A stretch of DNA of 56,680 nucleotides from a virus: the IMG/VR virus record IMGVR_UViG_3300022930_000002, positions 1-56,680 of that record, one strand, 5' to 3'. A program made the position numbers and the translations under genes. Positions 8,026-41,641 of the stretch are shown one piece after another; the stretch's first letter is position 1, and each line of letters opens with the position of its first letter. The notes beneath the pieces were generated by a model. It made no database searches. It was not told where the DNA came from and saw only the letters and a program-made list of their open reading frames with translations.

Positions 8026-8262
8026 ATGGAAAATTTAGTACCGAGATTACAATACAAAGTTGAACTTACTAGAGTTCACAACAAGAATACTGCGCCAGTT
8101 GGTAAAATATTTTTAGTAGTTCACGTTAAGCAACGCACAAAAAAAGGGTTCAACAATTATAAAAAATCATTTGCTGTTTTACTGGGTACTCCGGAGGACA
8201 GATTAAATGAAATGTCTCAATCCATGATCGATCAGATCAAAAAACAATTTTCTCTAACATAA
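8026..8262 (+). CDS. hypothetical protein
   Basis: ORF track; tightly packed between the HEG and the second glycosyltransferase. Confidence 0.6.
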   Translation: MENLVPRLQYKVELTRVHNKNTAPVGKIFLVVHVKQRTKKGFNNYKKSFAVLLGTPEDRLNEMSQSMIDQIKKQFSLT

Positions 8263-8816
8263 TGGCTATCCATTACATCCAACCTTATAGCACTGCCAAA
8301 AATATTGGTGGTGCTATTAATTTGGCCATTGAAAGTTTAGTTACTACCGACGATGATTGGATCGTACTTTTAGATCACGATGTAATGTTTCTCCGGCCAG
8401 ATAGTAAATTTCAACTCGAGCAGATTCTTAATGCAGATCATAATTTTGCTATTTTAAGTTGTATGACAAATAGGCTAGCTGATCGAGAGCTTCTAGTTCC
8501 TGGAATGTTTGAGGAAACTGATATCTTGAAACATATTGAAATTGCAAATGCTTACCATAAAACTCACTACGGTAAAGTCAGTCCGACCAGAAAAAACTTA
8601 GCTGCAATGGTCCTGTGTTTCAAAATAGATACTTGGAGATTTCTGGGTAGGTTTGTGGAGAACTCTTTAAAGTTTGATTCCACTTTTTGTATAAGAGCTA
8701 AGAACTCTGGACTAAATTTGGGTATAATTATTGGCATTTATGTTTTCCATTTATACCGGATGGGTCAGCCAGGAGAAGCAAGAAAAAATTATGCGCATTT
8801 ATTAAATGAAAATTAG
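8262..8816 (+). CDS. glycosyltransferase, GT2-like
   Basis: YS.AKNIGGAINLAIE..DDDWIVLLDHDVMF (DxD) pattern. Confidence 0.65.
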   Translation: MAIHYIQPYSTAKNIGGAINLAIESLVTTDDDWIVLLDHDVMFLRPDSKFQLEQILNADHNFAILSCMTNRLADRELLVPGMFEETDILKHIEIANAYHKTHYGKVSPTRKNLAAMVLCFKIDTWRFLGRFVENSLKFDSTFCIRAKNSGLNLGIIIGIYVFHLYRMGQPGEARKNYAHLLNEN

Positions 8817-12380: not shown

Positions 12381-12571
12381 ACTCTGATCTCGTAATAATT
12401 ATTTTTCTTGTGATACCTGGACTCCTGATCTTTGATGATCTCCTTTACTCGGTAGCTGATGCCTTCGAAACAAACGGTAGTTCCATGAACTACTACTGAT
12501 GGGGTATGGAACGCGAAGAATCTCTGATCAACGTTATACCTGTGGGTTTTTAATGGTTTTAGATTTATCAT
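12377..12571 (-). CDS. hypothetical protein
   Basis: ORF track; 4-nt overlaps on both sides. Confidence 0.6.
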   Translation of the reverse strand: MINLKPLKTHRYNVDQRFFAFHTPSVVVHGTTVCFEGISYRVKEIIKDQESRYHKKNNYYEIRV

Positions 12572-13077
12572 TTTCGTAATGCTGTATGTTTCTCCACTTC
12601 CGGAAGTTGTTTTAGTTTTTCATAATCCCACCGGAAGCCTTTAAAGGAAAAATACCTTCCTATTCTTCGACACACTTTTTGTATGTTACTGTGTTTAGGG
12701 TCGGTGCCGATAGATATCGCTGCCTCTTTTACAGAAGGGAAGGATTGAATATACCTGCCCTTCAGATCGTACTGGTGAACTTCCTTAATATTAGGCATTG
12801 CATAAACCACATCAGGCTTGTCAACCGGATTGAACTTCTGCTTATGCCTCCTTAGATAATCGTGCACCTGGCTAAGTTTGAACCGCAGCGTTTCTTCAAG
12901 CTCCGTAGCAAGCATAAGTTTACTGGTATGTAGATTATTTACCAGATATTTGGACCCTATCAGTTCCTCACCTTCCTGGTTATGTAACACAAAACCATTC
13001 TCGTGCCGGCCCCGACAGGTTAGTTCCTCAATCGTAAACTGGGGAGTGATCCGATATCTTGTCTCACCTTTATTCAT
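12568..13077 (-). CDS. hypothetical protein with C-terminal NUMOD1/IENR1-like DNA-binding module
   Basis: FPSVKEAAISIG..NIQKVCRR...FKGFRWDY resembles the HTH module of phage homing nucleases; no nuclease motif seen. Confidence 0.5.
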   Translation of the reverse strand: MNKGETRYRITPQFTIEELTCRGRHENGFVLHNQEGEELIGSKYLVNNLHTSKLMLATELEETLRFKLSQVHDYLRRHKQKFNPVDKPDVVYAMPNIKEVHQYDLKGRYIQSFPSVKEAAISIGTDPKHSNIQKVCRRIGRYFSFKGFRWDYEKLKQLPEVEKHTALRK

Positions 13078-13246: not shown

Positions 13247-13960
13247 TTTTTATCAAATTTAAAAACACTGCTACACTAATTTTTAATTCTTCTAACGTCC
13301 CATTATTCTTGATCTCGTAATCGAAATTAGCATCATCAAGAGCCGTTTCAGATGGGTGCTGACAACTGATTTGGTATCGCGGTGGATTCTTAAAGTTATA
13401 CCTCCTTTAGCTTTAACAGCTTCCAGTTCGTTTTCGAACCGCATATCAGATATAATCCAATTTGGGTATATAGGCGGGTGTTTAGAAATATAAATGCCAT
13501 CCTTTAATTTCTCCCAACTGTATTCAGAACCATCGGATAATCTTCCTCTGTAATCTGCAAATAAAGCATTTACGTGGATATTTTTATGAATCACATCGCG
13601 CATTGCATCTGTGCCTAAAGCCTGTAAAAGCCAACGCATCGTAGGTTCGTATAAAACATATGCTTTCTTGGCAATTGGTCCCAATTTATAAAATTCAATA
13701 GGAGTTAATATTTTTCGTGAGCCTGTCGCTAGAAAAAAGTACTCATTGGAATAGAAACTCCACTCAGGACCAAGCTTCGAATCCTTCACTTCCTGCTTTT
13801 CTAAATCTTCGACAGGGATACCTGTCAATAACGAAACAATCTGTTTCAATTTACCCGCGAACTTTTTAACTTCCCAAGTTTTAGGCTGTATGTCCTGGAT
13901 CATCTGGGCTACGGTATCTTTGCCCGAGCCAATTTTACCTGAGATTGAAATTATGCTCAT
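13236..13960 (-). CDS. deoxynucleoside monophosphate kinase (T4 gp1-like), with an apparent -1 frame break near 13359-13400
   Basis: P-loop GKIGSGKDT at the N-terminus. The canonical C-terminus HPSETALDDANFDYEIKNNGTLEEL is only readable in the -1 frame and ends at 13236. Confidence 0.7.
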
Positions 13961-21737: not shown

Positions 21738-21959
21738 ATGGAATTCACATTAGTAATTACAGCGTTTTTAAGCCTGTTATTAGCACTTAAAAAGCATAGG
21801 CAAACCAAAGCATTAAAAGAAACTTTAGATTGGCAGATAGAGCGCAATATAGACCTATATAAAAAGAATCTGCAATTGTTTGCAATACTGAATAAAGACA
21901 ATCGAGAACTTAAGCAGAAAGTTATCAACGATTCGCAGAGATATAAAGAAACTTTATAG
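21738..21959 (+). CDS. small membrane-anchored coiled-coil protein (start trimmed to the ATG at 21738)
   Basis: MEFTLVITAFLSLLLAL followed by a charged helix. Confidence 0.55.
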   Translation: MEFTLVITAFLSLLLALKKHRQTKALKETLDWQIERNIDLYKKNLQLFAILNKDNRELKQKVINDSQRYKETL

Positions 21960-21964
21960 TAAAC

Positions 21965-21989
21965 AACCCGCCCTAACAAAGCGGGTTTT
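21965..21989 (+). terminator. intrinsic terminator
   Basis: AACCCGC-N9-GCGGGTT followed by TT. Confidence 0.6.
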
Positions 21990-22012
21990 ATAGGTATAAG
22001 ATAACAGGTAAT

Positions 22013-22285
22013 ATGAAAAAGCAAATATTTTATGGCATAACGTTTTATTTTGAAAACTTTAATCATCAAATGGATTCCGATTTATTAGGGGAAATATTAA
22101 GATCAAGGTTTATGAAAAATCACGGGGGCCAACAATATGAAAGAAGAAAATTAGCAGATTGGTTTAAGGATTGTTTTCCTTTTATTGATACAATAGTTTT
22201 ATATAAAGTTTCAGGACGTAAAAATGAACATGAAAGGGAATTTTCAGTTTCGGAATATATTATCTCAAAAGCATATTTAAAATAA
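22013..22285 (+). CDS. hypothetical protein
   Basis: ORF track. Confidence 0.55.
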   Translation: MKKQIFYGITFYFENFNHQMDSDLLGEILRSRFMKNHGGQQYERRKLADWFKDCFPFIDTIVLYKVSGRKNEHEREFSVSEYIISKAYLK

Positions 22286-22287
22286 TT

Positions 22288-22473
22288 ATGGCACGTAAAA
22301 ATAAAATAGTCGGGGCTATACCCAACGCAGGTAGAAAGAAACAGGAAACAACCCAAAGCGCAATATTAAATTTGCGTATATCGGAAACGGCAAGACAGGC
22401 ACTAAACAGCCTCCCCAGGATGGAACGTGGAAAATTAGTGGATCAATTGATCCGCGACCATTTTATGGTATAG
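22288..22473 (+). CDS. small RHH-like DNA-binding protein candidate
   Basis: SAILNLRISETARQALNSLPRMERGKLVDQLIRDHF has a strand then two-helix pattern; its stop codon lies in the first 17-bp repeat. Confidence 0.5.
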   Translation: MARKNKIVGAIPNAGRKKQETTQSAILNLRISETARQALNSLPRMERGKLVDQLIRDHFMV

Positions 22474-22536
22474 TATAAAAACAGCTATAGTATAAAAATA
22501 GCTATAGTATAAAAACAGGCATAGCATAAACAAGAC
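22469..22536 (+). repeat. tandem 17-bp repeat, 4 copies (TATAGTATAAAAACAGC consensus)
   Basis: TATAGTATAAAAACAGC / TATAGTATAAAAATAGC / TATAGTATAAAAACAGG / CATAGCATAAACAAGAC, head to tail. Confidence 0.9.
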
Positions 22537-22539
22537 AAA

Positions 22540-22791
22540 ATGAAAGCTAAATTATTGAAGAAATTCCGCAAACGGTTTGAAATTATCACCTTCGGAAAAA
22601 ACAGTCTGGCCCTCCTGGATCACAAAGATGAGAGGGTAATTTATAACATCGTTCCTGGTAGGCCAATACGATGTTTGAGCGATGCAATTGTGGTTGGAGT
22701 GTCTAAGTTAGAGATAGGTTTCTATCAGCACTTAGAATTTATCAAGACCAGAAGAAAAAGAATGTACCATTCACACTTAACTAAGAAATAA
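22540..22791 (+). CDS. hypothetical basic protein
   Basis: ORF track; lies between the two repeat arrays. Confidence 0.55.
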   Translation: MKAKLLKKFRKRFEIITFGKNSLALLDHKDERVIYNIVPGRPIRCLSDAIVVGVSKLEIGFYQHLEFIKTRRKRMYHSHLTKK

Positions 22792-22946
22792 TGAATACCG
22801 AATTGATCAATCGAATAGAGGAACTATTCCTGGAATTGCTTAAGTCCAAAACTGGATGGGGCAGGGTAGAAATTGCAGCAGCTTATAAAGAAGCTCAGAG
22901 GCAGGCCCTATTGGAGTTTGTTGATAAATATTATTCACCCCTATAG
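22791..22946 (+). CDS. hypothetical 51-aa protein
   Basis: Hand translation MNTELINRIEELFLELLKSKTGWGRVEIAAAYKEAQRQALLEFVDKYYSPL; TAATG coupling. Confidence 0.45.
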   Translation: MNTELINRIEELFLELLKSKTGWGRVEIAAAYKEAQRQALLEFVDKYYSPL

Positions 22947-22975
22947 CATAAAAACTGCCATAGCATAAAAAGCTA
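22942..22975 (+). repeat. second array of the same 17-bp repeat, 2 copies
   Basis: TATAGCATAAAAACTGC / CATAGCATAAAAAGCTA, ending 5 nt before the viperin ATG. Confidence 0.85.
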
Positions 22976-22980
22976 AGAAA

Positions 22981-23871
22981 ATGAAAAAGCATTTAGATTT
23001 TGATTGGAACAGATATTTAAACTGTCCACCCTCACAAAAGTTATTTGATCCGATGTTCGAAACGGTCTCCTTCCATATTGTAAAGCCTTGCAACATGAAA
23101 TGTAAATTCTGCTACGCCACATTTGATGACTTCCATGTTGGCCCGCAGATATCTCTGCTTGATGCCCAAACTGTCATACGTCGATTGAAGGAAGCAGGTA
23201 TGCAGAAGATCACTTTTGCCGGTGGCGAACCAATGCTATACAAACACCTGGACGAAATTATCAGGTACAGCAAGAAAATTGGACTGACCACTTCCATCAT
23301 CTCTAATGGATCACTAATGACTCCGGACTGGCTGCGGAAGATGAGACCATATTTGGATTGGATAGGAGTCTCCATTGACAGTTTGGATTATAGTACAAAC
23401 AAAGCTATTGGCCGGACCGCTAAAGGAGATGTAGAGTATTCAGAATTACTGTATAGTATAAAAACCCTAGGATATAAGCTGAAGATCAATACAGTGGTGA
23501 ACTCATACAACTGGCAGGAAGATTTTAATGAGCTTATCTACCTAGCCAAACCAGACAGATGGAAAGTGTTTCAGGCCCTACGTATCGAAGGACAGAATGA
23601 TCATCAGTTCGACGAGATTAAAGTTTCTGCTTTTCAATTTTCTGATTTTCTTTGGAGACATTCTAAGCAAACATCTATGGTTCCAGAAAATAATAAGAAG
23701 ATGACAGGCTCATATCTTTTAGTTGATCCACTGGGAAGGCTATTTGAGAACAGTTCTGGCAAGCATACGTATTCTTTACCGGTGCAGGATTCAAGTGTCG
23801 CAGAGTGCCTTAAACAGATCAATCTGGACAGATCAATGTTCATTAAACGTGGAGGACTGTACAAATGGTAG
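22981..23871 (+). CDS. viperin-like radical SAM enzyme (prokaryotic viperin, pVip-type)
   Basis: CNMKCKFC (CxxxCxxC), AGGEPM, IISNGS, VSIDS, KINTVVN, PDRWKVFQALRIEGQN, VPENNKKMTGSYLLVD, MFIKRGGLYKW-end. These are collinear with vertebrate viperin motifs. Confidence 0.85.
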   Translation: MKKHLDFDWNRYLNCPPSQKLFDPMFETVSFHIVKPCNMKCKFCYATFDDFHVGPQISLLDAQTVIRRLKEAGMQKITFAGGEPMLYKHLDEIIRYSKKIGLTTSIISNGSLMTPDWLRKMRPYLDWIGVSIDSLDYSTNKAIGRTAKGDVEYSELLYSIKTLGYKLKINTVVNSYNWQEDFNELIYLAKPDRWKVFQALRIEGQNDHQFDEIKVSAFQFSDFLWRHSKQTSMVPENNKKMTGSYLLVDPLGRLFENSSGKHTYSLPVQDSSVAECLKQINLDRSMFIKRGGLYKW

Positions 23872-24128
23872 TAAAACAAAATACCACTCTGGAAACAACT
23901 TTAATTTTCGGTGGAGGATGCCCTACTTTCTACTCTGAAGGAGTTATAAGAATGAATTGGGACCATAAAGAAATTACCCATGTAATTGTATCTACTCAAT
24001 TGTGCCCCGTTGTAGAAGGTATTATCCAAAATATAAATTGGATTTTTAAAAATAAAGGATGTGATCCAACTTTTAAAGTAATGGATTCTCTTATTGATAG
24101 CGCAAAAGTATTTTTTAAAGAGGTATGA
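23865..24128 (+). CDS. hypothetical protein translationally coupled to the viperin gene
   Basis: Its ATG overlaps the viperin stop (ATGGTAG). Confidence 0.55.
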   Translation: MVVKQNTTLETTLIFGGGCPTFYSEGVIRMNWDHKEITHVIVSTQLCPVVEGIIQNINWIFKNKGCDPTFKVMDSLIDSAKVFFKEV

Positions 24129-24328
24129 AACACAAAGCAAAATTTTGTCTGACTAATTACCATTGCGGTAATTGCGAGACCGGTGTAGTTCAAATCCACC
24201 AACAGATGAACAAAAGAAAAGAAGTAACCACCACTGTAAGTGGCTGCTTAGACTGCGGAAAAGACTATGGTATTCGACAGGCCAGTCAATTAGAAATCTA
24301 TAAAAGAGATGATATAGTCTGGGCATAA
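24125..24328 (+). CDS. small 4-Cys zinc-ribbon protein
   Basis: CGNCETG ... CLDCG; ATGA overlap with the upstream ORF. Confidence 0.55.
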   Translation: MKHKAKFCLTNYHCGNCETGVVQIHQQMNKRKEVTTTVSGCLDCGKDYGIRQASQLEIYKRDDIVWA

Positions 24329-24329
24329 A

Positions 24330-24378
24330 AAAAATATTTACAAAATATTTTGTTTCCTCAGAATAAGTTGTATATTTG
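24330..24378 (+). promoter_or_regulatory. promoter of the AAAAATATTTACAAAATATTTTG class
   Basis: AAAAATATTTACAAAATATTTTG-N18-TATATTTG. Confidence 0.65.
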
Positions 24379-24539
24379 AATAACGGTAGTCCAGTTACGA
24401 AAATGAAAGAAGCCAGATATTGAGGGCTTGCAACCGGACACAGCGAAGGCGATTACGCCAACAATACTTAGAAACCCGACTCCTACCAAGGATCGGGATT
24501 TCTAGGTGCCGGATGTTCGGCAATTAAATCTTAGCGGAT

Positions 24540-24875
24540 ATGAAAGAAGTAAAAATATTAGTTAGGGATTTTGACCCTGAAATTGATTTGCCTATACTAG
24601 AGTTATCTGTAAAAAAGTTTGCTTTAATAGGGAGTTTCGATAATTATAATAATGCTAAAGTGCATATATCAAAAGATAATCTAACTATTGATGCATACTG
24701 TGGCCGTATGGGTATTCAGTATTGTTTCGTTTCAAATACCGGATTTCAGTATGATGAAACAAAATTGTTCAGCATAAATGAAATTATTGATTTAGAAAAA
24801 ATATGTAAAAAATGTTTAAACAGTTTAAAAAAAAATAAAATAACATTCCCATCCCCGCTAAGTCGGATACTTTAG
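24540..24875 (+). CDS. hypothetical protein flanked by GC-rich structured RNA segments
   Basis: ORF track. Confidence 0.55.
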   Translation: MKEVKILVRDFDPEIDLPILELSVKKFALIGSFDNYNNAKVHISKDNLTIDAYCGRMGIQYCFVSNTGFQYDETKLFSINEIIDLEKICKKCLNSLKKNKITFPSPLSRIL

Positions 24876-25185: not shown

Positions 25186-26031
25186 ATGGAAACAGCTCCT
25201 AAAAGACTCATCATTGGCGTGATCGCCATCGTCCTAGCATTAATCACATGGTGGATTCAACCCATGACCTACGAAAACATTGATGCCGGTAATGTCGGAA
25301 TCAAACCTTTACGGTTCTGATCGCGGTGTAGATAAAATTACAATCGTATCCGGTCGTGTCTGGTACAATACCTGGACAACCCGTATAGTGGAGTTCCCAA
25401 CATTTGTACAGAATGTAGATTACAAACCATTTGCAATTAACACAGTAGATGCAGCAAGGTTTGAGATTGATACTAAAATGCAGTATCGTGTATTATCTGA
25501 CTCAGTGCCTAAGATTTATACAACTTTCAGGTCCAACTTAGCAGACATCCAAGGTGAAGGTAGATATATTCAGACCGCAGTTTACGATGCCTTTAAAGCA
25601 ATTGTACCAAAATACACCTCAGACAGTTTAATGGCCAAGAGAGCACAGTTTGAAACTGAAGTAGAGATTGTATTGAAAGAAAGACTGGGATCACGTGGTA
25701 TCGTCTTAGAACAACTTACCTCGAACATTACCCCCCCCCTACATCTATGGCGCAGGCAATTGAGGCGAAGAATAGTTCGATCCAAGCAAAACTGGCAGCA
25801 GAAAATCAGGCTAAACAAGCTATAGCTGAGGCCAGTGTAATTAAAGCAAAAGCAGAAGGTGATGCAGCAGCGACATTAGTTCGTGCCAGAGCCGAGTCCG
25901 AAGCCAACCGATTGAAGCAGGCAACTCTTACACCGTTACTGGTAGAGATGGCCCGAATACAGAAATGGGATGGTGCATATCCCACAACAATAGCCGGAGG
26001 TGGTGCCGGATTCATGATGAACATGAAGTAA
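25186..26031 (+). CDS. SPFH / band-7 (prohibitin-stomatin) domain protein, split by two frame changes (about 25300-25310, and the C9 tract 25731-25739)
   Basis: Three collinear pieces: a TM anchor plus YENIDAGNVGIK, then NLYGSDRGVD...LEQLTSNITPP, then MAQAIEAKN..AEGDAAA...IQKWDG. Confidence 0.7.
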
Positions 26032-26551: not shown

Positions 26552-27718
26552 ATGAAACAATACATAGACTTACTAAAAGCTATCGAAGCCCAGGGCACCG
26601 ATAAGCCTGCTGCCCGAGCAAATATGCCAGGCTCCCGATCACTATTCGGATACCAGTTCAGACATAATCTAGCTGATGGATTCCCATTACTTACCACTAA
26701 AAAGATGTACTGGAAAGGTATCGTAGCTGAATTGCTATGGTTCTTAAGAGGTGATACCAACATCAAATTTCTGGTGGATAATGGAGTCAACATCTGGAAT
26801 GGTGATGCTTACAATTTTTATCTTAAAAAATGTAAAGAAGTAGGAGTTACAGAACCATTGGAAATGGAGGGAGAATTTGGTTTTATAGCCCACATCAAAG
26901 CTTCCCAGTTACAACCTGGTACAAAAGTTTTAGCTCAGTCAGGATACCAATATGGTGATTGCGGATATCAATACGGTAAAGTGTGGACAAACTGGCAAGG
27001 AGAACCTTTTTTAGCAGGCAATACTTCTGGTGGAGATAACCATATTTACATTGATCAACCTTCCATCAATCAGATCACCAGAGTCATCCGGTCGTTACGC
27101 GAAACCCCAGAATCACGCAGACATATCGTTACCGCAGTTGATCCGGCTCACGACACAGACTTAGCCCTATATTGGTGCCATAGTATGTTTCAATTCAACT
27201 GTAGACCTCTTACACTTAATGAGAGGTACGAACTGTCCAACACAGGCTATATCCTGTTTGAGGATGAAAGTGATGAACTGGAATATAAGCAGATGCCGAA
27301 TATTTATGGTCCTGAAACTTTAACAGAAAGGATGGATTACTTTAATGTACCAAAATACTATTTGGATTGTCAGCTTTACCAGAGATCAGCCGATAGTATT
27401 TTAGGTGTGCCCTTTAATATTGCAAGTTATGCGCTACTTACCCATTTCATAGCTAAGATCGTTAACATGGTGCCAGGAGAGTTTATTCATAGTTTCGGAG
27501 ATGCCCACGTATATGACAACCATAAAGAAGCAATGGCAGAACAACTGAGCCGTACACCAACTGAGCTGCCAAAGTTAAATATAAATAGCCTGCCGTTCGA
27601 TTACCTGGAAGCAGGAGAAGATTGGGATAATTTCTTGTATGGTCTTAAAATAGAGGATTTTGAATTAATTGGATATAATCCTCAGCCTGCTATAAAAGCA
27701 GAACTTTCAACAGGATAA
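26552..27718 (+). CDS. thyA: thymidylate synthase (ThyA) family enzyme, divergent, with two ~50-aa insertions
   Basis: AELLWFLRGDTN, ESRRHIV, WCHSMFQF (catalytic Cys), QLYQRSAD..GVPFNIASYALL, GDAHVYDNH. The usual RTGTGT, SAWNP and PPCH motifs are altered. Confidence 0.8.
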   Translation: MKQYIDLLKAIEAQGTDKPAARANMPGSRSLFGYQFRHNLADGFPLLTTKKMYWKGIVAELLWFLRGDTNIKFLVDNGVNIWNGDAYNFYLKKCKEVGVTEPLEMEGEFGFIAHIKASQLQPGTKVLAQSGYQYGDCGYQYGKVWTNWQGEPFLAGNTSGGDNHIYIDQPSINQITRVIRSLRETPESRRHIVTAVDPAHDTDLALYWCHSMFQFNCRPLTLNERYELSNTGYILFEDESDELEYKQMPNIYGPETLTERMDYFNVPKYYLDCQLYQRSADSILGVPFNIASYALLTHFIAKIVNMVPGEFIHSFGDAHVYDNHKEAMAEQLSRTPTELPKLNINSLPFDYLEAGEDWDNFLYGLKIEDFELIGYNPQPAIKAELSTG

Positions 27719-30293: not shown

Positions 30294-30572
30294 TTAGATA
30301 AGTTCTAAGCATAATAAAAATTCGTTAAGTTGTTCTTCAGTGCCGATGGTATAAACTTTTATACCAAGCTTGCGAAGAATTTTATGGATTAAACGTTGTT
30401 GCGGAGAAAGACCATTCTTACCCCATTTAGTTTCAACAAAATAGATACGGCCTAAAGGCATAAAAATGATCCGATCAGGAACACCTTTAGTTTGGGGGGA
30501 AACCCATTTATAGCATTTCCCTCTCAAGGCTTCAATTTTACGCTTTAGTTTCGCCTCTAATTTTGCTTCCAT
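30294..30572 (-). CDS. VRR-NUC domain nuclease (start trimmed to M13 of the ORF track)
   Basis: GVPDRIIF..GRIYFVETKWGKNGLSPQQ pattern (D..E.K). Confidence 0.7.
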   Translation of the reverse strand: MEAKLEAKLKRKIEALRGKCYKWVSPQTKGVPDRIIFMPLGRIYFVETKWGKNGLSPQQRLIHKILRKLGIKVYTIGTEEQLNEFLLCLELI

Positions 30573-31381
30573 GATGAGAAAATATGTGCAATTACATCTA
30601 TGGTCCAACCATTCCCAAGCATCTTATATCTTTGGCAGTTTGAAACTGAATCGGTATAATTATCTGGAACTGTTTGAAGTCTCTCACATTCTAAAGGAGT
30701 AACTTTTCTGGGTAGATTTGTTTTTTTATCAAATACCATTTGACCTTGATTTTTAGTAAAATATTCACGTTTTGTAGTTCTACCGATTGAAGATATTATA
30801 CATCTACTTTTATCTCTATCAACATAAAAATCATCTGATATTATATCTTTTAATAAAATATTTCTGTCTTTAGGAATTTCTAAAGGAGCTATGTTAGTCC
30901 AATATATTCTTTTCCTGGTTTGAGCTGATACTAAAGCTGAATTAATTGCGATAGGTTCTACCCCAAGATATCCTGAAATAATATCCTGAGATTCCTTTTT
31001 CATCTTTACATTTTCTAATAAAAATTTAATCTCTGGATTAGTCTTTCTCAGTGTTTCTAAAAGCCTTACATACTCAAAAAACAGCTTACTTCTTGGGTCC
31101 TCAAAGTTCAATTGTTTACCCGCAAAGGAGAAGCCCTGACAAGGACTCCCCCCTATAAGAAGATCAATCTTAGGAAGTATCGCTTCAACCACAAAATCAT
31201 CCAAATCTACAACTGATCCCAGTTGAACTGTATTTGGGTAGTTGGATAGGGCTACTTTAATTGCATACTTATCTATTTCACTGGCGTAATATTCATTTAC
31301 TTTAATGCCTGATCTTTCTAATGCGATCTGCCCACAGGACATCCCATCAAAAAGACTTAAGACATTTATTCCGTTTTTCAT
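30557..31381 (-). CDS. DNA (cytosine-5)-methyltransferase, no cognate restriction gene seen
   Basis: LSLFDGMSCG (motif I), GGSPCQGFS (IV), FLLENV (VI), QRYKMLGNGWT (X). Confidence 0.85.
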   Translation of the reverse strand: MKNGINVLSLFDGMSCGQIALERSGIKVNEYYASEIDKYAIKVALSNYPNTVQLGSVVDLDDFVVEAILPKIDLLIGGSPCQGFSFAGKQLNFEDPRSKLFFEYVRLLETLRKTNPEIKFLLENVKMKKESQDIISGYLGVEPIAINSALVSAQTRKRIYWTNIAPLEIPKDRNILLKDIISDDFYVDRDKSRCIISSIGRTTKREYFTKNQGQMVFDKKTNLPRKVTPLECERLQTVPDNYTDSVSNCQRYKMLGNGWTIDVIAHIFSSWKQN

Positions 31382-33795
31382 ACTTTAGCTTTTTTACTTT
31401 CATTGACAATTGATTCGACTTTTACATAGGCACGTTGTCTACCATACGGACCAAAGTTTCTAACCGATGTAGATTTAACCCAACCAGGTATCTGAGCAAG
31501 CATCTGGTGTATGTATTTAGTATTTACACTAGTCATCTTACTAAAATCCTGTTCGAATAGCTCTGACCAGATTTCAGCTACGCAAACAGATACTCTTTCC
31601 TGAGTTCCAAAAGACATAATATCTTCTGTACTTCTAAGATATTGCCTGCGGAAAACTATACCCGATTTATTCCAATCTTCCGGAAGTGGTGTTTCAAGGA
31701 AACGTTCAACTATACCAACACGTTCTTCAGCTTCAGTATGGGCAGTCTGCATAGCAGTAGCCATAGCTTCCAATTCTTTGGATAGATACAATGGTTCGCC
31801 TTCATCAAATAAAACTTTAGCTTCAGCCCAGATTTGATCCACTGGCATTTCATCCCAGGATTTTGTTTTTCCCTCAATAAATCCATAAACGGTAACTGGC
31901 CAGAACCTACGGTTTCCCGTATAATCTTTTAGAAAAGAACTTTCATTGGTTGTGCCTACCAAAATACACTGTCGGGCAAAGTTCTCTGTTCTTCTACCAT
32001 AAGCTACTCTGAATTTATCAAAACGTTTAGAAACAAATTGCTTGATCTGTTCTACTTCAGACTTCTTAAATCCTGCTAATTCAGCAATCTCTATGATCCA
32101 GTTGCCTTGTAATTGTTCGAACGACTCTTTACCTTGAACAGTGGTAAAACTGTCTGAAAACCATTCTTTACCCAGATTATTGAAGAAAGTACTTTTGCGG
32201 ATACCCTGAGCACCTACAAGAGTAAGCACTGTGTCGTATTTTATCCCAGGAACATAGATTCTTGCTACCGCAGCAACTAAAGTTTTTAAGGTTACAGCTC
32301 TGACATAAGGGGTATCTTCAGCATTGAAATAATCAATCAATAAAGTTTCAAGTCTCTTTTTACCATCCCAAACTTGCGAACCCACATAATCCTGAATCGG
32401 GTGATAGCTATTTTTCATAGCTGCAATATTGATGGCATCGAAAGTTTTACCAGTATTGAAAATACCGTAAACACGTTCCACATAATGGCGCATTCCGGCA
32501 TCATCAGAATCTACAAATGGTCTGGCCTTCACAAAATAATCATCCCATGGCAGTTCGCCAACTATATAGATATTTCCTTCAAAACTATTGTACTTGATCT
32601 TACCTTTTATTAGTGGGTCATTGTTGATGACAAGCACAATGTTGTTAATGGTAGAATCATAAACCCCATTTTTATTAAGGTTCATTTTCTTTTTCCAGGC
32701 ATTATCATCAACTTCTTCAGCATTTTCTTCTTCTACATAATCGTCGAAAGCATCAAAAGCCTGAAGTTTAATTTCCTGTTTAACAGCATCAAGTTCACTC
32801 ACCCAAGCCTGCATTTCTTTGAAACTTTCAAGCTTGTTTATTGCTGCATCGCTATCCTTATCAAGATGCCCATATTTATGTATACGTACAAGATCAAAAG
32901 CATTGACCAGTTTACCGTGAATAGGATCACTGTTGTGGAAGGAATAAAAGAAAGTTCCATGCTCATATACGCGAACACCGGCAGAAGTAGACCCACGTGT
33001 GTAGGTCATATATTCTTCCTTATCGGTATATTCATAAAGTAGTTGATCATTATCTTTCAGAAATTCTTCTGCTGCCTCTACAGCATTATAAGCTCTACAG
33101 AAAGCACCAACTAATCCTGGCTTTTCAGTAGGATCACCCTGCTTTTTAAGATCACTACGGACCGTAATATCTTCATTGGAAGTCATTGGCCATGCAGACA
33201 TATCTTTCCAGTCAACATACGTGGCCAGAATATCATCAGCACATAATATTTCATTACTGTCCTGATGTCTGAAAAGATATTCTCCATCTGAGCTAACAGA
33301 AGGCCAATACATCAAACGCTGTGGTTGAAAAGTAGTACTATCGAAATAGGCCATACCTATGTCATCTGCGATTTTACGACCAATAGCTTCATATTCCTCT
33401 CTGCTAACTGGGCGATCCAAAGGAATAATTAATCTTAATCGCGGTGCATCTGGGCAGTGTTTGTGTGTAGTATAAGTTGCTGCTTTACATCCGTAAATAA
33501 AAGTAAAATCTTCCCAAGCATCAGTAGTACCAAAATCACTGTCTAAAGTGATCAACTGGCGATGAGTAACGTTTGTAACCGGAGTTCTTTTACCTCCGGC
33601 AAGATACCCTCCTACAAAACCACCAACGTCTTTTTTCTCAGCTTGAAAAACTTTTGAAGCATTGATGTATGTTGAGTATGTTTCTCCCGTAGGAACAGGT
33701 GTTTCTAGCTTTTTTAAAAACTCATCCCAGGACATTTTTTTATTTTTCCAAGTCTTAGTCCTACGACTTGCTGCTACTGCAATATCAAAAATCAT
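31378..33795 (-). CDS. primase-helicase (N-terminal primase-polymerase-like region + VirE-type P-loop)
   Basis: 805 aa; Walker A GAQGIRKST; Walker B-like WIIEIAEL; sits next to the DNA polymerase. Confidence 0.75.
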   Translation of the reverse strand: MIFDIAVAASRRTKTWKNKKMSWDEFLKKLETPVPTGETYSTYINASKVFQAEKKDVGGFVGGYLAGGKRTPVTNVTHRQLITLDSDFGTTDAWEDFTFIYGCKAATYTTHKHCPDAPRLRLIIPLDRPVSREEYEAIGRKIADDIGMAYFDSTTFQPQRLMYWPSVSSDGEYLFRHQDSNEILCADDILATYVDWKDMSAWPMTSNEDITVRSDLKKQGDPTEKPGLVGAFCRAYNAVEAAEEFLKDNDQLLYEYTDKEEYMTYTRGSTSAGVRVYEHGTFFYSFHNSDPIHGKLVNAFDLVRIHKYGHLDKDSDAAINKLESFKEMQAWVSELDAVKQEIKLQAFDAFDDYVEEENAEEVDDNAWKKKMNLNKNGVYDSTINNIVLVINNDPLIKGKIKYNSFEGNIYIVGELPWDDYFVKARPFVDSDDAGMRHYVERVYGIFNTGKTFDAINIAAMKNSYHPIQDYVGSQVWDGKKRLETLLIDYFNAEDTPYVRAVTLKTLVAAVARIYVPGIKYDTVLTLVGAQGIRKSTFFNNLGKEWFSDSFTTVQGKESFEQLQGNWIIEIAELAGFKKSEVEQIKQFVSKRFDKFRVAYGRRTENFARQCILVGTTNESSFLKDYTGNRRFWPVTVYGFIEGKTKSWDEMPVDQIWAEAKVLFDEGEPLYLSKELEAMATAMQTAHTEAEERVGIVERFLETPLPEDWNKSGIVFRRQYLRSTEDIMSFGTQERVSVCVAEIWSELFEQDFSKMTSVNTKYIHQMLAQIPGWVKSTSVRNFGPYGRQRAYVKVESIVNESKKAKV

Positions 33796-34277
33796 ATAGC
33801 TTTTTTATTAAGTGAATTTCTTTTGTTTTTATTTTGCTCCGATTTTGGTATCCAACAACAGTTCTCAGGTTCATAATTACCATTAACGTCAATACGCTCT
33901 ATAGTTAAACCCTCAACATGAGAAGGACCCATATCTTTATTAAATTCTTTAAACTCTAGCCAGGGAGTATGTACGGTTATGCCTCTACCACCATAGTGTT
34001 TAAATACTTGTGAATTAGGATTATTACACCTTTGTATCATGGAATGCCAACTATTGTAAATACCAGAACCCCACAGGCCATGTTTAGTAATAACTTTTGT
34101 GTTAATACACCCACAACTTGTAGTATGTTGTCTTTTTAAATTACTACCGAAAACAATCGTTTCTTTGCCACAATCACATTTACATAACCATTTAATGTGG
34201 CCGTTTGGACTGCGTGAATCAATAGATATAGCAGTAAGCATTCCTATCTTTATACTTGGTTCAATCTTTATTTTCAT
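33792..34277 (-). CDS. homing-endonuclease-like protein, paralog of 28321-28950, inserted between polymerase and primase genes
   Basis: WLCKCDCG...SCGC, YNSWHSMIQRC, YGGRGI, ERIDVNGNYEPENCCWIPKSEQNKNK. Confidence 0.5.
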   Translation of the reverse strand: MKIKIEPSIKIGMLTAISIDSRSPNGHIKWLCKCDCGKETIVFGSNLKRQHTTSCGCINTKVITKHGLWGSGIYNSWHSMIQRCNNPNSQVFKHYGGRGITVHTPWLEFKEFNKDMGPSHVEGLTIERIDVNGNYEPENCCWIPKSEQNKNKRNSLNKKAI

Positions 34278-34280
34278 AGT

Positions 34281-36398
34281 TTATTTATTATAACAATAAC
34301 TTTCCCCACCTTCGGCAGCCAGAGGTAGGCCTTCCATCCATGGTTGAGGTTTAACCATGAGTCTGTTCACTTCTGCCAAAGATGTAACATTATTTGGCAT
34401 TTCTGCTATAACTTCATCATGAACGTGAGAGCAAATTAAAATACCTACTTTATCGAGGTTAAGCATGGCATTAGCAAGGCAATCTCGGGCTATAGCTTGA
34501 CAAATATTCTCGACAAGTTTTCCCCCGTATGTGCTTGATTTCTCCCATTTTCGTGTAAATTGACTGATTGCCCAGAAAGTGATTCTTTCTGCTTCTTTAA
34601 GCTTTGTACCGATTTGTACCGTGATTTCATCGCCTTCTTCATCGATAATTGTATCGTAAATTGGCACCTTTCGCATATAGGTTTGAACCTCAGCTTTAGG
34701 AAACATTAGTGACCGACCGGATGGTAAAGTTAACAAAAGAGTACCGTTTTTCATACTAAAACTTATACCCTTCTCTCCAACTTTCACAAGACCCCCGAAC
34801 TTAATTGCCTTTTTAGCAGCAGCTTCGCAGGCTCTCCAAAAAGCTACAATGTTTGGATTTGCTTCTCTCCAATCCTTTACAAGCTGTGGTTGCTCTTTTT
34901 TCTTAAGGCCCATCTTCTCAGCTCCCATTCTTTCCAAAGCATCCGGCCCACCGCCATAGCCCAGAAGTAAAGCACCAATTTTGCCTTTTTGTCTTTCCTG
35001 CTTTGTAACATCTTCAATTGGTTTGTGCATCATCTTAGATGCTGTGGCTTCATATATTTTACCGTGAGTTCTAAATACTTCAAGTACCCATTCCTCACCT
35101 GCAATCCAGGCCAAAACCCTTGCTTCAATAGCTGAGAAATCTGAGATGATTAAACGTTTAAGCTTGTCACTAATAAAAGCAGTCCTTATTAACTGAGAAA
35201 GGATATTGGATAAACTACCAAATACCCACTCAATATTTTCAATGTCCTTTTCTTTTACAAGCTGCCGAGCAAGCATTAATTCTTCCAGAGAAAGTAAAAT
35301 ACGTGGTAAGTTTTGAACCTGTACTAATCTGCCGGCCCATCGCCACGTTCGTCCGGCACCACAGAACTGAAACAGTCCTCTCACACGATCCCCGACACCC
35401 GCAGCTTTGATCATGGCAACATACTTCTTTATGGAAGTTTTGCTCATTTCCTGCCGGATTTCAAGCACCCTTTTAACGGCATCTACATCATCTAAAACGT
35501 AATCCATTTCTCCGGCATTTACCTTTTCAAGTAAATCGTCGATGGTGCCTTTAGATAGACTGGTAGTTCCTTCAGATTCATCCTCACTATCAAAACTTGA
35601 TGCTTTAGAAACTGGCGCAGTAGATTTTGTCTTGGGTAGAATTAAGCCTTGATTTTCTAACCAGACTTTTAACTGGGCAACGCTATTTGGATTACTTAAT
35701 CCGGTTAAACGTTTGGCCTCTAAAGTCAATCGCTCTCTGAAAATAGCATCCAATTCGATGGCACAATTGGCAAGATCAATATCTACTTTCCAACCTCTTT
35801 TATTTATACGCTGATCTAGGCACCAGAGTTTGTGCTCGATCTCCGGAAGTTCTACCCAGTGTAAAGCATCACAAATGGCCTGCTCTGTGGCAACATCCTG
35901 TTTACAATATTCAATAAACTTAGCCCATTTTTCAGGAGCATGATGTGGAAGGTTTCTGGTTCTCCCCCCGTTAGCTTTAGTAGGTTTACACGGAATACAG
36001 AAATATCTGATCAGTGCTTTACCTTCGCTATCCTTTTTATCTGCGGTGCCCAGGGCTTTACTAGATTCATCCAGAGACATTGGATATCCTGCAATAGCAG
36101 ATAATACTGCACTGCAACGCCATTGCTCAGGAACAAGCTCTAAACCTAATGCCTGGGAAATATTACCCAACTCAAAGGAAGCATTATGGGCTGTCTTTCT
36201 AAATTCATAAGAAAGCATGGCATCTATTACATATTGAGGTATTTTCTCCCCAGAAAGTAAGTCGATACATTTTGGAGGTTCTTTATCAATAGAATATCCA
36301 AATAATATAATTTCTGATTTCTCTGCGTATTTATATGATCCCGCAGATTTTATATCCACCTCGCAAAAGGTTTCAATATCTATAGACATTTCTCTCAT
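34281..36398 (-). CDS. family A DNA polymerase with 3'-5' exonuclease domain
   Basis: Exo I SIDIETF; Pol motif A ISDFSAIEARVLAW; motif B RQKGKIGALLLGYGGG; motif C SHVHDEV. Confidence 0.9.
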   Translation of the reverse strand: MREMSIDIETFCEVDIKSAGSYKYAEKSEIILFGYSIDKEPPKCIDLLSGEKIPQYVIDAMLSYEFRKTAHNASFELGNISQALGLELVPEQWRCSAVLSAIAGYPMSLDESSKALGTADKKDSEGKALIRYFCIPCKPTKANGGRTRNLPHHAPEKWAKFIEYCKQDVATEQAICDALHWVELPEIEHKLWCLDQRINKRGWKVDIDLANCAIELDAIFRERLTLEAKRLTGLSNPNSVAQLKVWLENQGLILPKTKSTAPVSKASSFDSEDESEGTTSLSKGTIDDLLEKVNAGEMDYVLDDVDAVKRVLEIRQEMSKTSIKKYVAMIKAAGVGDRVRGLFQFCGAGRTWRWAGRLVQVQNLPRILLSLEELMLARQLVKEKDIENIEWVFGSLSNILSQLIRTAFISDKLKRLIISDFSAIEARVLAWIAGEEWVLEVFRTHGKIYEATASKMMHKPIEDVTKQERQKGKIGALLLGYGGGPDALERMGAEKMGLKKKEQPQLVKDWREANPNIVAFWRACEAAAKKAIKFGGLVKVGEKGISFSMKNGTLLLTLPSGRSLMFPKAEVQTYMRKVPIYDTIIDEEGDEITVQIGTKLKEAERITFWAISQFTRKWEKSSTYGGKLVENICQAIARDCLANAMLNLDKVGILICSHVHDEVIAEMPNNVTSLAEVNRLMVKPQPWMEGLPLAAEGGESYCYNK

Positions 36399-38259: not shown

Positions 38260-38333
38260 TGCGAGGTACATCAGTTGGCTAGATGGTCCGGCTCATATCC
38301 GGAATGGCGAGAGTTCGAGTCTCTCCCTCGCAA
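38260..38333 (+). tRNA. tRNA with anticodon CAU (elongator Met or Ile2)
   Basis: Acceptor TGCGAGG/CCTCGCA, D stem CATC/GATG, anticodon stem TCCGG/CCGGA, loop CTCATAT, T arm GAGAG-TTCGAGT-CTCTC. Confidence 0.8.
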
Positions 38334-38401
38334 CGAACAAGTGCATTGACATTTTAGTGAAGTTAGTTCGGACGAGGGTTCGACTCCCTCCACCTCCACC
38401 A
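38334..38401 (+). ncRNA. ssrA: tmRNA-like acceptor piece (3' half of a tRNA-Ala-like domain, encoded CCA)
   Basis: GGAC-GAGGG-TTCGACT-CCCTC-CACCTCC-A-CCA; its 5' end ACAAGTGCA is complementary to the 3' end of the coding piece. Confidence 0.6.
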
Positions 38402-38468
38402 ATGTTAAGGGTAGTTACTTAACGCTAAAGAAAAGGATTGATTGATGATCGCCTTTTCTAAACCTAAT

Positions 38469-38610
38469 GGGGGTGCCTGGTTTTGACGTATTAATAAGTA
38501 GGTAAAGTAGAGTGTTTGTTTAAATTCAACTGGCAAAGTTGTAAAAATGTTCAGTCCATCGCTAAGAGCGGTAGCCTAAACAGTCCGCAGGGAACTAAAT
38601 CCCTGCACTT
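38469..38610 (+). ncRNA. ssrA: tmRNA-like coding piece (5' acceptor strand GGGGGTG, D-loop analogue CCTGGTTTTGAC, candidate tag frame ending AVA-TAA, 3' hairpin)
   Basis: GGGGGTG pairs with CACCTCC (38391-38397), giving G3:U70. An open frame at 38511-38576 stops at TAA 38577. Hairpin GCAGGGA-ACTAAA-TCCCTGC. Confidence 0.55.
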
Positions 38611-38683
38611 GTATCCTTAGCTCAGTTGGTAGAGCAGCGCACTCATACTGCGTAGGTCGTCTGTTCGAGTCAGGCAGGGTACA
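38611..38683 (+). tRNA. second tRNA with anticodon CAU (Met or Ile2)
   Basis: Acceptor GTATCCT/AGGGTAC, D arm GCTC-AGTTGGTA-GAGC, anticodon stem GCGCA/TGCGT, loop CTCATAC, T loop TTCGAGT. Confidence 0.85.
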
Positions 38684-38691
38684 CAATTAAT

Positions 38692-38713
38692 AAAACAGTT
38701 AAACAGTAAAATC
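38692..38713 (+). promoter_or_regulatory. conserved 5' leader motif AAAACAGTTAAACAGTAAAATC (copy 1)
   Basis: Near-identical to 41642-41671, in both cases just before an ATG. Confidence 0.5.
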
Positions 38714-38722
38714 GAAAAACAG

Positions 38723-39334: not shown

Positions 39335-40513
39335 ATGTCAGGCCACGCAAAACTCTCGCCATCCTCCGCTAGTAGGTGGATGGCTTGCACTAAGTCTCCG
39401 GACTTAGAATCTAATTTTCCTAATACTACCAGTAGTTTTGCTGAAGAAGGCACGTTGGCTCATGCAATTTGTGAGGATATGCTACGTCTGGAACATAACC
39501 AGATAACTGAAAAACAGTATGAGAAGCAAATGAAATCTCATAGGAAAAGCCAATATTATAACGAAGAAATGTTACAGTATTGCCAGGACTATGTTGATTT
39601 TGTAAACTTGTCAGCTTGCGAACCAGGTGCTTTTATTTTCATCGAACAACGTCTTGATATGACTAATTATGTTCCTGAAGGTTTTGGTACTGGGGATGCT
39701 TTAGTGATCTGGCCATGGATGAAAAAACTTAAGTTCTTTGATTTAAAATATGGAAAAGGAGTTAAAGTCTCAGCATTAAATAACACACAACTTAAGTTGT
39801 ATGCACTTGGAGCCTTAAACGATTACGGACACATATTCGAGATTGAAGAAATTGAAGTTAATATCTTCCAACCACGTTTAGATGGATCATCTACCTGGAA
39901 CATTTCAGTAGCGGACCTGTTAGAATGGGCTGAAGCAGAACTTAAACCTAGGGCACTTTTAGCTTGGAATGGAGAAGGAGAGTATAAAGCAGGAGAGCAC
40001 TGTAGATTCTGTAAAGCAAAAGCACAGTGCCGAGCTTTAGCAGAATACAATCTAAGTCTTGCGGAGATGGCTTTTAAAGACCCCGATCTGTTAGAAATGG
40101 ATGAGATTGCTGATGTACTTTCCAAAGAAGATTTATTTAAGAATTGGATCGAAGCAGTAAAAGGTTATGCTTATGCGCAGGCTGTAGAGGGTGAGAAAAT
40201 TCCAGGATACAAGTTGGTCCACGGAAAATCTACTAGGGTCTACAGTGATCCTTTGAAAGTGGAAGAAGTGTTAAAGAAAAACGGTCATACCGATATCTAC
40301 ACCAAACCTGCTCTAGTTGGAATCACTGAGCTATCCAAACGTATTGGTAAAGTTAATTTTGCTAACGTAGTAGAACCTTTACTAATTAAGCCAGATGGCA
40401 AAGCAACACTGGTAGTAGAGTCCGATAAGAGACCGGAGATGTTAACGGCTCACGCAGCAGCTAATGCTTTTGACGATGAGTTTATTGATGACGATGCAAG
40501 CGATTTAGTATAA
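39335..40513 (+). CDS. PD-(D/E)XK exonuclease, DUF2800 / Cas4-like
   Basis: HAKLSPSSASRWMACTKSP start, GTGDALVI..DLKYGKG nuclease core, C-terminal CRFCKAKAQC. Confidence 0.75.
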   Translation: MSGHAKLSPSSASRWMACTKSPDLESNFPNTTSSFAEEGTLAHAICEDMLRLEHNQITEKQYEKQMKSHRKSQYYNEEMLQYCQDYVDFVNLSACEPGAFIFIEQRLDMTNYVPEGFGTGDALVIWPWMKKLKFFDLKYGKGVKVSALNNTQLKLYALGALNDYGHIFEIEEIEVNIFQPRLDGSSTWNISVADLLEWAEAELKPRALLAWNGEGEYKAGEHCRFCKAKAQCRALAEYNLSLAEMAFKDPDLLEMDEIADVLSKEDLFKNWIEAVKGYAYAQAVEGEKIPGYKLVHGKSTRVYSDPLKVEEVLKKNGHTDIYTKPALVGITELSKRIGKVNFANVVEPLLIKPDGKATLVVESDKRPEMLTAHAAANAFDDEFIDDDASDLV

Positions 40514-41621: not shown

Positions 41622-41641
41622 AATGGTTATCTTAGCTAATT

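Follow-up and report, generated by a model that had tools for sequence, protein, structure and literature searches.

A viperin homologue in a phage genome

The window analysed herein, which is the whole 56,680 nt stretch of IMG/VR virus record IMGVR_UViG_3300022930_000002, harbours a + strand open reading frame (ORF) of 296 aa at 22981–23871 that is almost certainly a prokaryotic viperin (pVip), a member of the viperin family of radical S-adenosylmethionine (SAM) enzymes. The gene resides amongst small + strand genes of a phage that has no recognisable RNA polymerase, and forms part of a tightly packed + strand unit spanning 21965–24328, at the left edge of which lies a hairpin-plus-T terminator. 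Within this unit it is preceded by an ORF of 61 aa and by two arrays of 17-bp repeats, and is followed by ORFs of 87 and 67 aa. A preliminary description of the region, made from its letters alone, had portrayed it as a viperin-like cassette behind phased tandem repeats; the coordinates and motifs that it gave for the 296-aa ORF all prove to be correct, as does its placement of the gene.

The NCBIfam model NF038283 ('viperin family antiviral radical SAM protein') returns 292.1 bits for this ORF against a cut-off of 180, and three PADLOC pVip models return 266–288 bits, whereas the best non-viperin model, MoaA, reaches only 73 bits (MoaA cut-off 284). A sequence search of the PDB retrieves mouse viperin at E=1.5e-50, with residues 28–296 of the pVip aligned to residues 31–309 of the crystallised construct; MoaA is returned at E=5e-9. 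Collinearity of the pVip with mouse viperin runs through the entire catalytic domain and takes in the C-terminal extension that is peculiar to viperins and ends in KRGG.Y.W, and the full-length collinearity proposed earlier holds for these aligned residues, with the N-terminal 24 residues outside the match. An AlphaFold2 (AF2) model built with 35 homologues, with a mean predicted local distance difference test (pLDDT) score of 81, matches the viperin fold, which is a partial β–α barrel closed by the C-terminal extension. When this model is compared with PDB structures using Foldseek, ranks 1–30 are all viperins with template modelling (TM) scores of 0.73–0.81, against at most 0.65 for other radical-SAM enzymes. 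Membership of MoaA (TM 0.5–0.57) or of another radical-SAM clade is ruled out by family profiles, PDB alignment and fold alike, in keeping with the original assignment.

The motifs of the protein comprise CNMKCKFC (residues 37–44), AGGEPM (80–85), SNGS (108–111), RWKVFQALRIEGQN, VPENNKKMTGSYLLVD and the C-terminal KRGGLYKW. The cluster cysteines C37, C41 and C44 and the GGE motif G81-G82-E83 are invariant in the 35 homologues. Equally invariant are K76, R145, K168, R193, K195, Y245 and R290, which align to residues that we take to be the triphosphate ligands of mouse viperin (K120, R194, K220, R245, K247, Y302 and R347, a list reportedly given by Fenwick and colleagues in 2020). The ORF encodes a genuine, full-length and apparently catalytically intact viperin. 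An N-φ-H triad before the cluster loop, together with a Phe after the third Cys, is presumably a further viperin motif (the triad is said to have been described by Lachowicz and colleagues in 2021); the pVip has F31 and H32 of this triad, and the Asn position is taken by S30. In the β8-loop, N257 and H262 occupy the positions of mouse C314 and K319, which are specificity determinants, an Asn at the first of these positions denoting a 'promiscuous' pocket that is typical of prokaryotes (Shomar preprint, bioRxiv 10.1101/2023.09.13.557418). Because of this Asn257, the product would likely be a mixture of the 3′-deoxy-3′,4′-didehydro (ddh) nucleotides ddhCTP, ddhUTP and ddhGTP.

Residues 1–24 of the pVip form a non-conserved extension that is disordered in the AF2 model, and most homologues start at the equivalent of Met25 (92 % query coverage), which provides an alternative start at 23053 that would yield a 272-aa form. 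The extension may or may not be translated, although the A-rich context of the ATG at 22981, directly after array 2, favours translation. An exception to the Met25-equivalent start is P0002/L008 (1286–2413), in which the frame extends unbroken for 101 codons ahead of the conserved Met, which is itself immediately preceded by a copy of the repeat motif described below; either an ORF further upstream has become fused to the pVip or the start has been over-called.

A phage-restricted clade of pVips

The pVip belongs to a discrete clade that, on the sequences compared, appears to be restricted to phages. The 120 best database matches to it are all 59–68 % identical, and the clade numbers at least 120 clusters at 90 % identity. 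When 126 sequences (47 clade members, 78 cellular pVips and mouse viperin) were aligned and used to build a neighbour-joining (NJ) tree with 200 bootstraps, the 47 formed a single clade in 200/200 replicates. Its members are 55–71 % identical to one another and at most 51 % identical to the 78 cellular pVips, and an identity gap between 57 and 50 % separates the clade from these proteins. The nearest cellular relatives are pVips of Bacteroidota, such as those of Lacinutrix mariniflava (45 %) and Neolewinella persica (43 %). Amongst 185,579 species-representative genomes (GTDB) there are 80 matches, of which two fall within the clade (62–63 % identity) and the others, mostly from Bacteroidota, do not exceed 49 %; one of these two clade loci, L014, has an annotated context, and this is a phage-like contig.

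All clade contexts that can be annotated are phage genomes and, where the neighbours can be named, the gene lies on the same strand as early, recombination or replication genes. Thirteen of the clade contigs derive from IMG/VR, and L008 is likewise a phage context. The gene is accompanied by NinG, an amidase endolysin and a tail-fibre chaperone domain in L007, by ERF, NinB, NinG and DnaB in L120, and by a terminase, ERF and NinG on the P0113 contig, which is assigned to a Chitinophagaceae 'MAG' (metagenome-assembled genome). In the integrase-bearing phages L009/10, L011 and L012/13 it is found several kb into a rightward early operon, and in the phage-like contigs L137 (113,360 nt) and L138 (112,080 nt) it sits inside a module of DnaB, primase, Sak4 and ExoVIII. 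Unannotated giant ORFs (1,491 aa and >1,287 aa) lie beside the pVip in L137 and L138, and could be structural proteins or a divergent polymerase. None of the clade contexts examined is a bacterial or archaeal chromosome or a defence island, every one being phage, and no kinase adjoins the gene. No pVip is present among 50,697 GenBank records of cultured phages, which may explain why phage viperins have not been studied; a search of literature full text returned no study of phage-encoded viperins, and one passing annotation remark only.

Organisation of the locus

The features of the locus are collected in Table 1. The hairpin at its left edge is, from its sequence, likely the terminator of the preceding unit, and the unit from orf90 to zn67 is therefore taken to begin after it. 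Array 1 ends 3 nt before the ATG of orf83.

Table 1. Features of the pVip locus (window coordinates)
Feature	Position	Strand	Remarks
Hairpin, likely terminator	21965..21987	+	G+C-rich palindromic stem, then TTTTAT; AACCCGCCCTAACAAAGCGGGTTTTAT reads as + strand terminator
orf90 (90 aa)	22013..22285	+	first gene of packed unit; none matched in family searches
61-aa basic ORF	22288..22473	+	candidate DNA-binding regulator; homologues adjoin motif arrays
Array 1	22469..22536	+	four 17-bp units, TATAGTATAAAAACAGC x3, then CATAGCATAAACAAGAC; begins in stop codon of 61-aa ORF
orf83 (83 aa)	22540..22791	+	kept in relatives (L121, 52 % identity; L008, two copies)
orf51 (51 aa)	22791..22946	+	no homologue in relatives; TAG stop inside array 2
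Array 2	22942..22975	+	two 17-bp units; 5 nt before ATG 22981
pVip (296 aa)	22981..23871	+	almost certain member of the radical-SAM nucleoside triphosphate (NTP) 3′-deoxy-3′,4′-didehydro synthase family
Internal motif copy	23389..23401	+	TATAGTACAAACA, within pVip ORF
Internal motif copy	23452..23464	+	TATAGTATAAAAA, within pVip ORF
87-aa ORF	23865..24128	+	overlaps pVip stop by 7 nt (ATGGTAG)
67-aa ORF (zn67)	24125..24328	+	two CxxC pairs, Zn-ribbon-like; 4-nt overlap (ATGA) with 87-aa ORF

The coupling claimed for the two small downstream ORFs is matched by their measured overlaps, but the idea that they form a cassette with the pVip did not survive comparison with other loci. The 87-aa ORF has a homologue in none of the loci fetched, the large protein database not having been searched with it. 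Homologues of the 67-aa Zn-ribbon ORF (64–84 % identity) occur in the related phages L139–L141, which have no pVip, no 87-aa ORF and no repeat motif; it is, by this distribution, a gene of the lineage and not a pVip partner, a role for which it is ruled out. An unrelated 55-aa ORF with four cysteines also lies downstream of the pVip in L007 (3012–3179, + strand).

More broadly, when + strand ORFs within 4 kb of the gene were clustered for 21 distinct clade loci, no neighbour family was common to more than three of them, and no conserved pVip partner emerged. In these neighbourhoods the pVip is a stand-alone accessory gene in a variable slot. A sister phage, L121, retains the same order of genes, including a helicase (80 % identity), the 61-aa gene (78 %), the ThyA-like gene (61 %) and orf83 (52 %), with other genes replacing the pVip. 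The G+C content at third codon positions (GC3) is 44 % for the pVip, compared with 28–39 % for core genes.

Downstream of the pVip unit, at 24349–24378 (+ strand), lies the sole full match to a Bacteroidota-type promoter (TTTG, 18 nt, TATATTTG) in the + strand block scanned (approximately 16–29.5 kb). This is followed, within 24349–24540 (+ strand), by a 160-nt non-coding stretch with an unusually stable fold (−49.4 kcal/mol, z=−3.9), a candidate sRNA or structured leader for a 111-aa ORF. An Rfam search over 21900–24700 gave nothing meaningful.

The 17-bp repeats and the 61-aa protein

The repeats had been described as 4 + 2 copies at an exact 17-bp spacing that start inside the stop codon of the 61-aa ORF, and this is borne out. 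The units begin at 22469, 22486, 22503 and 22520, the fourth being degenerate, and at 22942 and 22959; Tandem Repeats Finder (TRF) reports 22469–22530 with a period of 17 and 3.6 copies. The TAG stops of the 61-aa ORF (22471–22473) and the 51-aa ORF (22944–22946) fall inside the first units of arrays 1 and 2, respectively. The arrangement is not random, with the core ATAGYAYAAAMA occurring nine times in the window against an expectation of 0.30, a number reached in 0/100 shuffles. Eight of the nine copies lie within 22470–23464, all on the + strand, and the ninth, at 49788 (+ strand), is inside a − strand tail gene. Two of the eight, at 23390 and 23453, are inside the pVip ORF itself and had been overlooked.

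The same motif is found in the relatives L008, L121 and L122; it can be written as a 13-nt sense-strand element, [CT]ATAG[CT]A[CT]AAA[AC]A, that follows the 61-aa gene and lies 0–9 nt upstream of several start codons. In L008, two orf83 paralogues enclose four copies. Each of the next two starts, among them that of the pVip at the Met25 equivalent, has a copy directly in front of it, and a copy also lies inside the pVip. L121 carries four copies after the 61-aa homologue; an HNH gene and orf83 are each preceded by one, and another is found farther downstream. In L122 the first copy is 13 nt past the 61-aa homologue, near the contig end. Across the window and these three loci, the exact copies in arrays and inside pVip genes are all on the sense strand, and the last array copy is 0–9 nt from an ATG. 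Neither 20 other pVip loci nor L139–L141 have the motif, and L139, a more distant relative, also has no 61-aa gene. Beyond these, a scan of IMG/VR for two motif copies 3–20 nt apart produced 26 matches, mostly AT-rich giant-virus or large contigs, none of which encodes the proteins of the locus.

Two further points of the preliminary description need correcting. Control specific to the pVip is at odds with L121, which has no pVip and carries the motif after its 61-aa homologue, in front of the HNH gene and of the orf83 homologue. Only in this genome is the phasing exactly 17 bp, the corresponding spacings being 29/16/29 in L008 and 23/63/33 in L121, and it looks like the result of local tandem duplication. 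We conclude that the motif serves this phage lineage as a putative cis-regulatory element, one that is coupled to the 61-aa protein and would be an operator, a promoter or an element acting in RNA. Host promoters were considered and rejected, as sigma-70-type pairs number 59 against 52 expected and no Bacteroidota TTTG/TAnnTTTG (−33/−7) pair overlaps the repeats. A replication origin was likewise discarded, since GC skew tracks the coding strand and has no extremum at 22.5 kb. The stretch at 21990–22010 that separates the terminator from the ATG of orf90 contains a degenerate motif-like sequence, TATAGGTATAAGATAACAGG, which could represent a seventh upstream copy carrying an insertion of 1 nt.

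Homologues of the 61-aa protein, at 54–78 % identity, are encoded in L008, L121 and L122 immediately upstream of the motif, which is absent where the gene is absent; three more clusters also contain homologues. The protein had been labelled ribbon-helix-helix (RHH)-like, a label that no search or model supports. There is no Pfam, NCBIfam or PADLOC match, a PDB profile search and Foldseek are both empty, and the AF2 model (pLDDT 69) contains three helices and no strand. The only feature fitting an RHH protein is a compatible sequence pattern (LNLRIS, helix, helix). A divergent 65-aa ORF directly upstream of the pVip in L007 (1654–1851, − strand) displays a clear RHH-like sequence pattern; alignment of the 61-aa ORF to it with hhalign gives E=0.011 and a probability of 4 %.

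For the repeats taken by themselves, there is a real possibility, somewhat short of an even chance, that they are not operators for the 61-aa protein and act instead as phage-specific promoters giving short-leader or leaderless mRNAs, or as RNA-level elements of translation initiation placed like the T4 RegA/RegB targets, with the 17-bp array a local tandem duplication. Such a role would suit the sense-strand orientation, the position of the last copy at 0–9 nt from an ATG, the lack of conserved spacing, the resemblance of TAG[CT]AT to a −10 hexamer and the failure to detect a DNA-binding fold in the 61-aa protein. It is harder to reconcile with the lack of any match to the Bacteroidota −33/−7 consensus or to a sigma-70 −35/−10 pair, with the three copies that are found within pVip coding sequence at a great distance from any start codon, and with the strict co-occurrence of motif and 61-aa gene.

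The phage genome

The window is a complete phage genome of approximately 56,553 bp, as an exact 127-nt direct repeat at its two ends (1–127 and 56554–56680) marks a circular, complete assembly; the protein's own contig measures 56,694 nt. Annotation by PHROG and Pfam matches identified packaging and structural genes (large terminase, portal, major head protein, head–tail connectors, major tail proteins, a tape-measure-like protein and endolysin), a T7-type replisome (family A PolA with a separate exonuclease subunit, a gp2.5-like single-stranded DNA-binding protein and a VirE/primase-helicase) and a DUF2800 nuclease. No ORF of at least 150 aa in the window matched an RNA polymerase or an integrase, and the earlier statement that the phage has no polymerase of its own stands to that extent. 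The phage looks virulent and siphovirus-like. Its host is probably a member of the Bacteroidota, because relatives of the pVip occur in Chitinophagaceae/Bacteroidota MAG contigs and in phages with Bacteroidota-type integrases. Among cultured phages even the nearest relatives are remote, with the primase-helicase 47 % identical to that of Bacteroides fragilis phages and the capsid protein 24 % identical to its best match; at the DNA level, the ThyA gene is the sole match to any cultured phage, near or distant.

Accessory genes include a deoxynucleoside monophosphate (dNMP) kinase (13292–13960), two glycosyltransferases (6029–7384 and 8262–8816), a DNA methyltransferase (30557–31381) and a 388-aa ThyA homologue (26552–27718), which is lengthened by an insertion and keeps the catalytic Cys and the Asn of PFNIASY. 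Such a set is typical of phages with hydroxymethyl-pyrimidine-based DNA hypermodification.

Proposed role and alternatives

Viperins are a textbook case of antiviral immunity shared from bacteria to humans, and are described as cellular effectors. For the phage gene, the likeliest and most economical role, in our view an even call, would be to poison competitor phages with ddhNTPs during infection, and the evidence favours use during lytic growth. The enzyme, with SAM and its [4Fe-4S] cluster, would convert NTPs to ddhNTPs in the course of lytic infection. As the phage itself would transcribe with the far less sensitive multisubunit RNA polymerase of its host, the brunt of these chain terminators would fall on co-infecting or superinfecting phages equipped with polymerases of their own, and the gene would be a weapon of virus–virus competition and not of cellular defence. 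Polymerase-carrying phages, such as Crassvirales, are common in Bacteroidota. Bernheim and colleagues reportedly found in 2021 that pVip products block expression dependent on T7 RNA polymerase and not expression dependent on host polymerase. The multisubunit host enzyme is reported to be far less sensitive to pVip products than are single-subunit phage polymerases, and that T7 RNA polymerase is selectively sensitive is established (restated in PMC9642334). The motif arrays would serve as cis-regulatory sites of the early unit, either as operators or as phage-specific promoters, with the 61-aa protein a candidate ligand.

A number of observations weigh against this proposal. The equivalent of mouse N77 is Ser in 47/47 clade members and Asn in 97 % of the 78 cellular pVips, and the Phe after the third cluster Cys is replaced by Tyr (Y45) in 96 % of the clade, which also shows C to Y at position 87 and D to E at position 256; as these substitutions are clade-wide, chemistry or substrate could differ. 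An 897-aa ORF in the tail module (46958–49651) has no PDB or Pfam match and might be a divergent RNA polymerase, and were one present among the giant ORFs of L137 and L138, the argument that a phage with no RNA polymerase of its own is immune would be weakened. Damage from the ddhNTPs could also extend to the primase of the phage itself or to the transcription for which it depends on the host. Finally, the 61-aa protein has no detectable DNA-binding fold.

It is rather unlikely that the phage clade is no anti-phage weapon and is instead a viral take-over or counter-immunity enzyme, or a supplier of hypermodification. On this reading, the changed surroundings of the active site (Ser for Asn in the NxH triad, Tyr for Phe behind the cluster) and the lytic-operon position would reflect such a function; the product would be a 3′-deoxy-didehydro or other dehydrated nucleotide that blocks host immune nucleotide signalling or polymerases, or that feeds hypermodification of the phage's nucleic acid. 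Counter-defence or host take-over, taken by itself, we regard as unlikely. Here 3′-deoxy NTP analogues would poison host enzymes that need a 3′-OH, with possible targets in cyclic-oligonucleotide-based antiphage signalling systems (CBASS), Pycsar, the Cas10 synthases of type III CRISPR, defence reverse transcriptases or primases, and host transcription at a chosen stage. The early lytic, recombination or replication position in every annotated context is consistent with such a function, as is the distance of several kb from repressor and integrase in temperate phages, and a phage-restricted, conserved clade fits a part in the phage's own infection more than one in a lysogen. Nevertheless, no match to an anti-defence family was found, the pVip products known so far reportedly leave host RNA polymerase unaffected, and ddhATP, which would be needed to block synthesis of cyclic oligoadenylate (cOA) or cGAMP, is not a known product. 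We know of no example of viperin-type counter-defence, and the case for it is purely inferential.

Distinctly unlikely is that the gene is defence cargo of the prophage type, protecting a lysogenic host and inherited by the window phage through exchange with temperate relatives. Clade members do occur in the integrase-bearing phages L009, L011 and L012, the GC3 of the pVip is somewhat above that of core genes, and phage-encoded defence hotspots are well known (PMC9122126). Conversely, no integrase is encoded by the window genome, complete as it is, the pVip has no canonical host promoter in front of it, and in temperate relatives the gene is inside a long rightward early operon and not beside the repressor, integrase or attachment site.

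Very unlikely, lastly, is a biosynthetic function, in which the enzyme would supply a dehydrated nucleotide or nucleotide-sugar for modification of phage nucleic acid together with the ThyA-like enzyme, dNMP kinase and two glycosyltransferases: all of these and a DNA methyltransferase are encoded by the phage, annotated pVips are often found in phage loci with glycosyltransferase and ThyS/5mYOX genes (bioRxiv 10.1101/2023.12.21.572611), and the substitutions at and near the NxH position could signal a changed substrate, but the 21 clade loci share no conserved neighbour, most pVip phages examined have neither ThyA nor a glycosyltransferase within 10 kb, sister phage L121 keeps the ThyA-like gene with no pVip, and the retained triphosphate-ligand residues argue for an NTP substrate.

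Comparison with known systems

The phage protein shares with cellular pVips (Bernheim et al. 2021; NF038283, PADLOC pVip) its length, radical-SAM and C-terminal motifs, predicted fold, triphosphate ligands and single-gene nature. It differs in forming a separate clade with the two substitutions around the cluster loop noted above, and in lying amongst early or replication genes, where these can be named, whereas cellular pVips lie in defence islands. Likewise, vertebrate viperin (RSAD2; PDB 5VSL, 6Q2P) has approximately 36 % identity to it over the catalytic domain, a TM score of 0.8, and the cluster and SAM motifs and KRGG.Y.W in common, but the phage protein has no ER-targeting (endoplasmic reticulum) N-terminal helix and has Asn/His in the β8-loop where the CTP-selective mouse enzyme has Cys314/Lys319. 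The likeness to MoaA (GTP 3′,8-cyclase) is limited to the radical-SAM core, scores and fold being different.

In its placement the gene resembles the P2/P4 hotspot systems (PMC9122126), which are also accessory genes in a variable slot between conserved genes and present in some relatives; here, however, the phage looks virulent, and the pVip is co-oriented with early genes and has no lysogeny-associated position. A single annotation sentence on pVips in phage ThyS/glycosyltransferase hypermodification loci, in a survey of such loci (bioRxiv 10.1101/2023.12.21.572611), is the one earlier mention of phage pVips that turned up. The window likewise has a ThyA-like gene and two glycosyltransferases, but its pVip lies at 23 kb, away from the glycosyltransferases at 6–9 kb, and the association fails across the clade. 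Omega of pSM19035, ParR/parC and Arc/Mnt offer a parallel for a gene of a small basic protein followed by short direct-repeat arrays that overlap downstream starts, but in the window an RHH fold is not detectable and the repeats have one orientation, occur in coding region as well and vary in spacing among relatives.

The viperin family, and the carriage of defence genes by phages, are already known. What appear new are a discrete phage-only pVip clade, its early or replication placement, including in a complete genome with no integrase, and a fixed change in a triad proximal to the active site. A phage-only branch amongst early and replication genes implies that viruses themselves may deploy chain-terminator nucleotides. 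A part for ddhNTPs in virus–virus competition, the tolerance by a polymerase-less phage of its own poison, and targets beyond viral RNA polymerases all become testable, and the clade offers enzymology a natural set of viperin variants with Asn replaced by Ser in a conserved triad.

Other features of the genome

Several further features of the window merit description. PolA (34281–36398, − strand) is encoded by one gene and its exonuclease subunit (41013–41621, + strand) by another, on the opposite strand. Two HNH endonuclease genes and an ORF with a NUMOD1 domain are located at 33792–34277, 40513–41025 and 12568–13077. An SPFH/Band-7 gene appears to be split over three overlapping frames (25186–25320, 25280–25825 and 25747–26031, + strand), which could be due to frameshifts, a pseudogene or assembly errors.

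The genome has seven tRNA genes in total, five of which (Pro-TGG, Gln-TTG, His-GTG, Arg-ACG and Leu-TAG) are clustered at 1191–1636 (+ strand). Two tRNA-Met genes, at 38260–38334 and 38611–38684, flank a match to the permuted tmRNA family RF04321 (Rfam, 57 bits against a gathering score of 47) at 38341–38579 (+ strand), for which ARAGORN gave no call and which could represent a two-piece tmRNA-like gene carried by the phage. Short tandem repeats of a second family, TAAAACAG, are present in the + strand block of replication genes, with approximately four copies each at 38691–38722 and 41641–41669.

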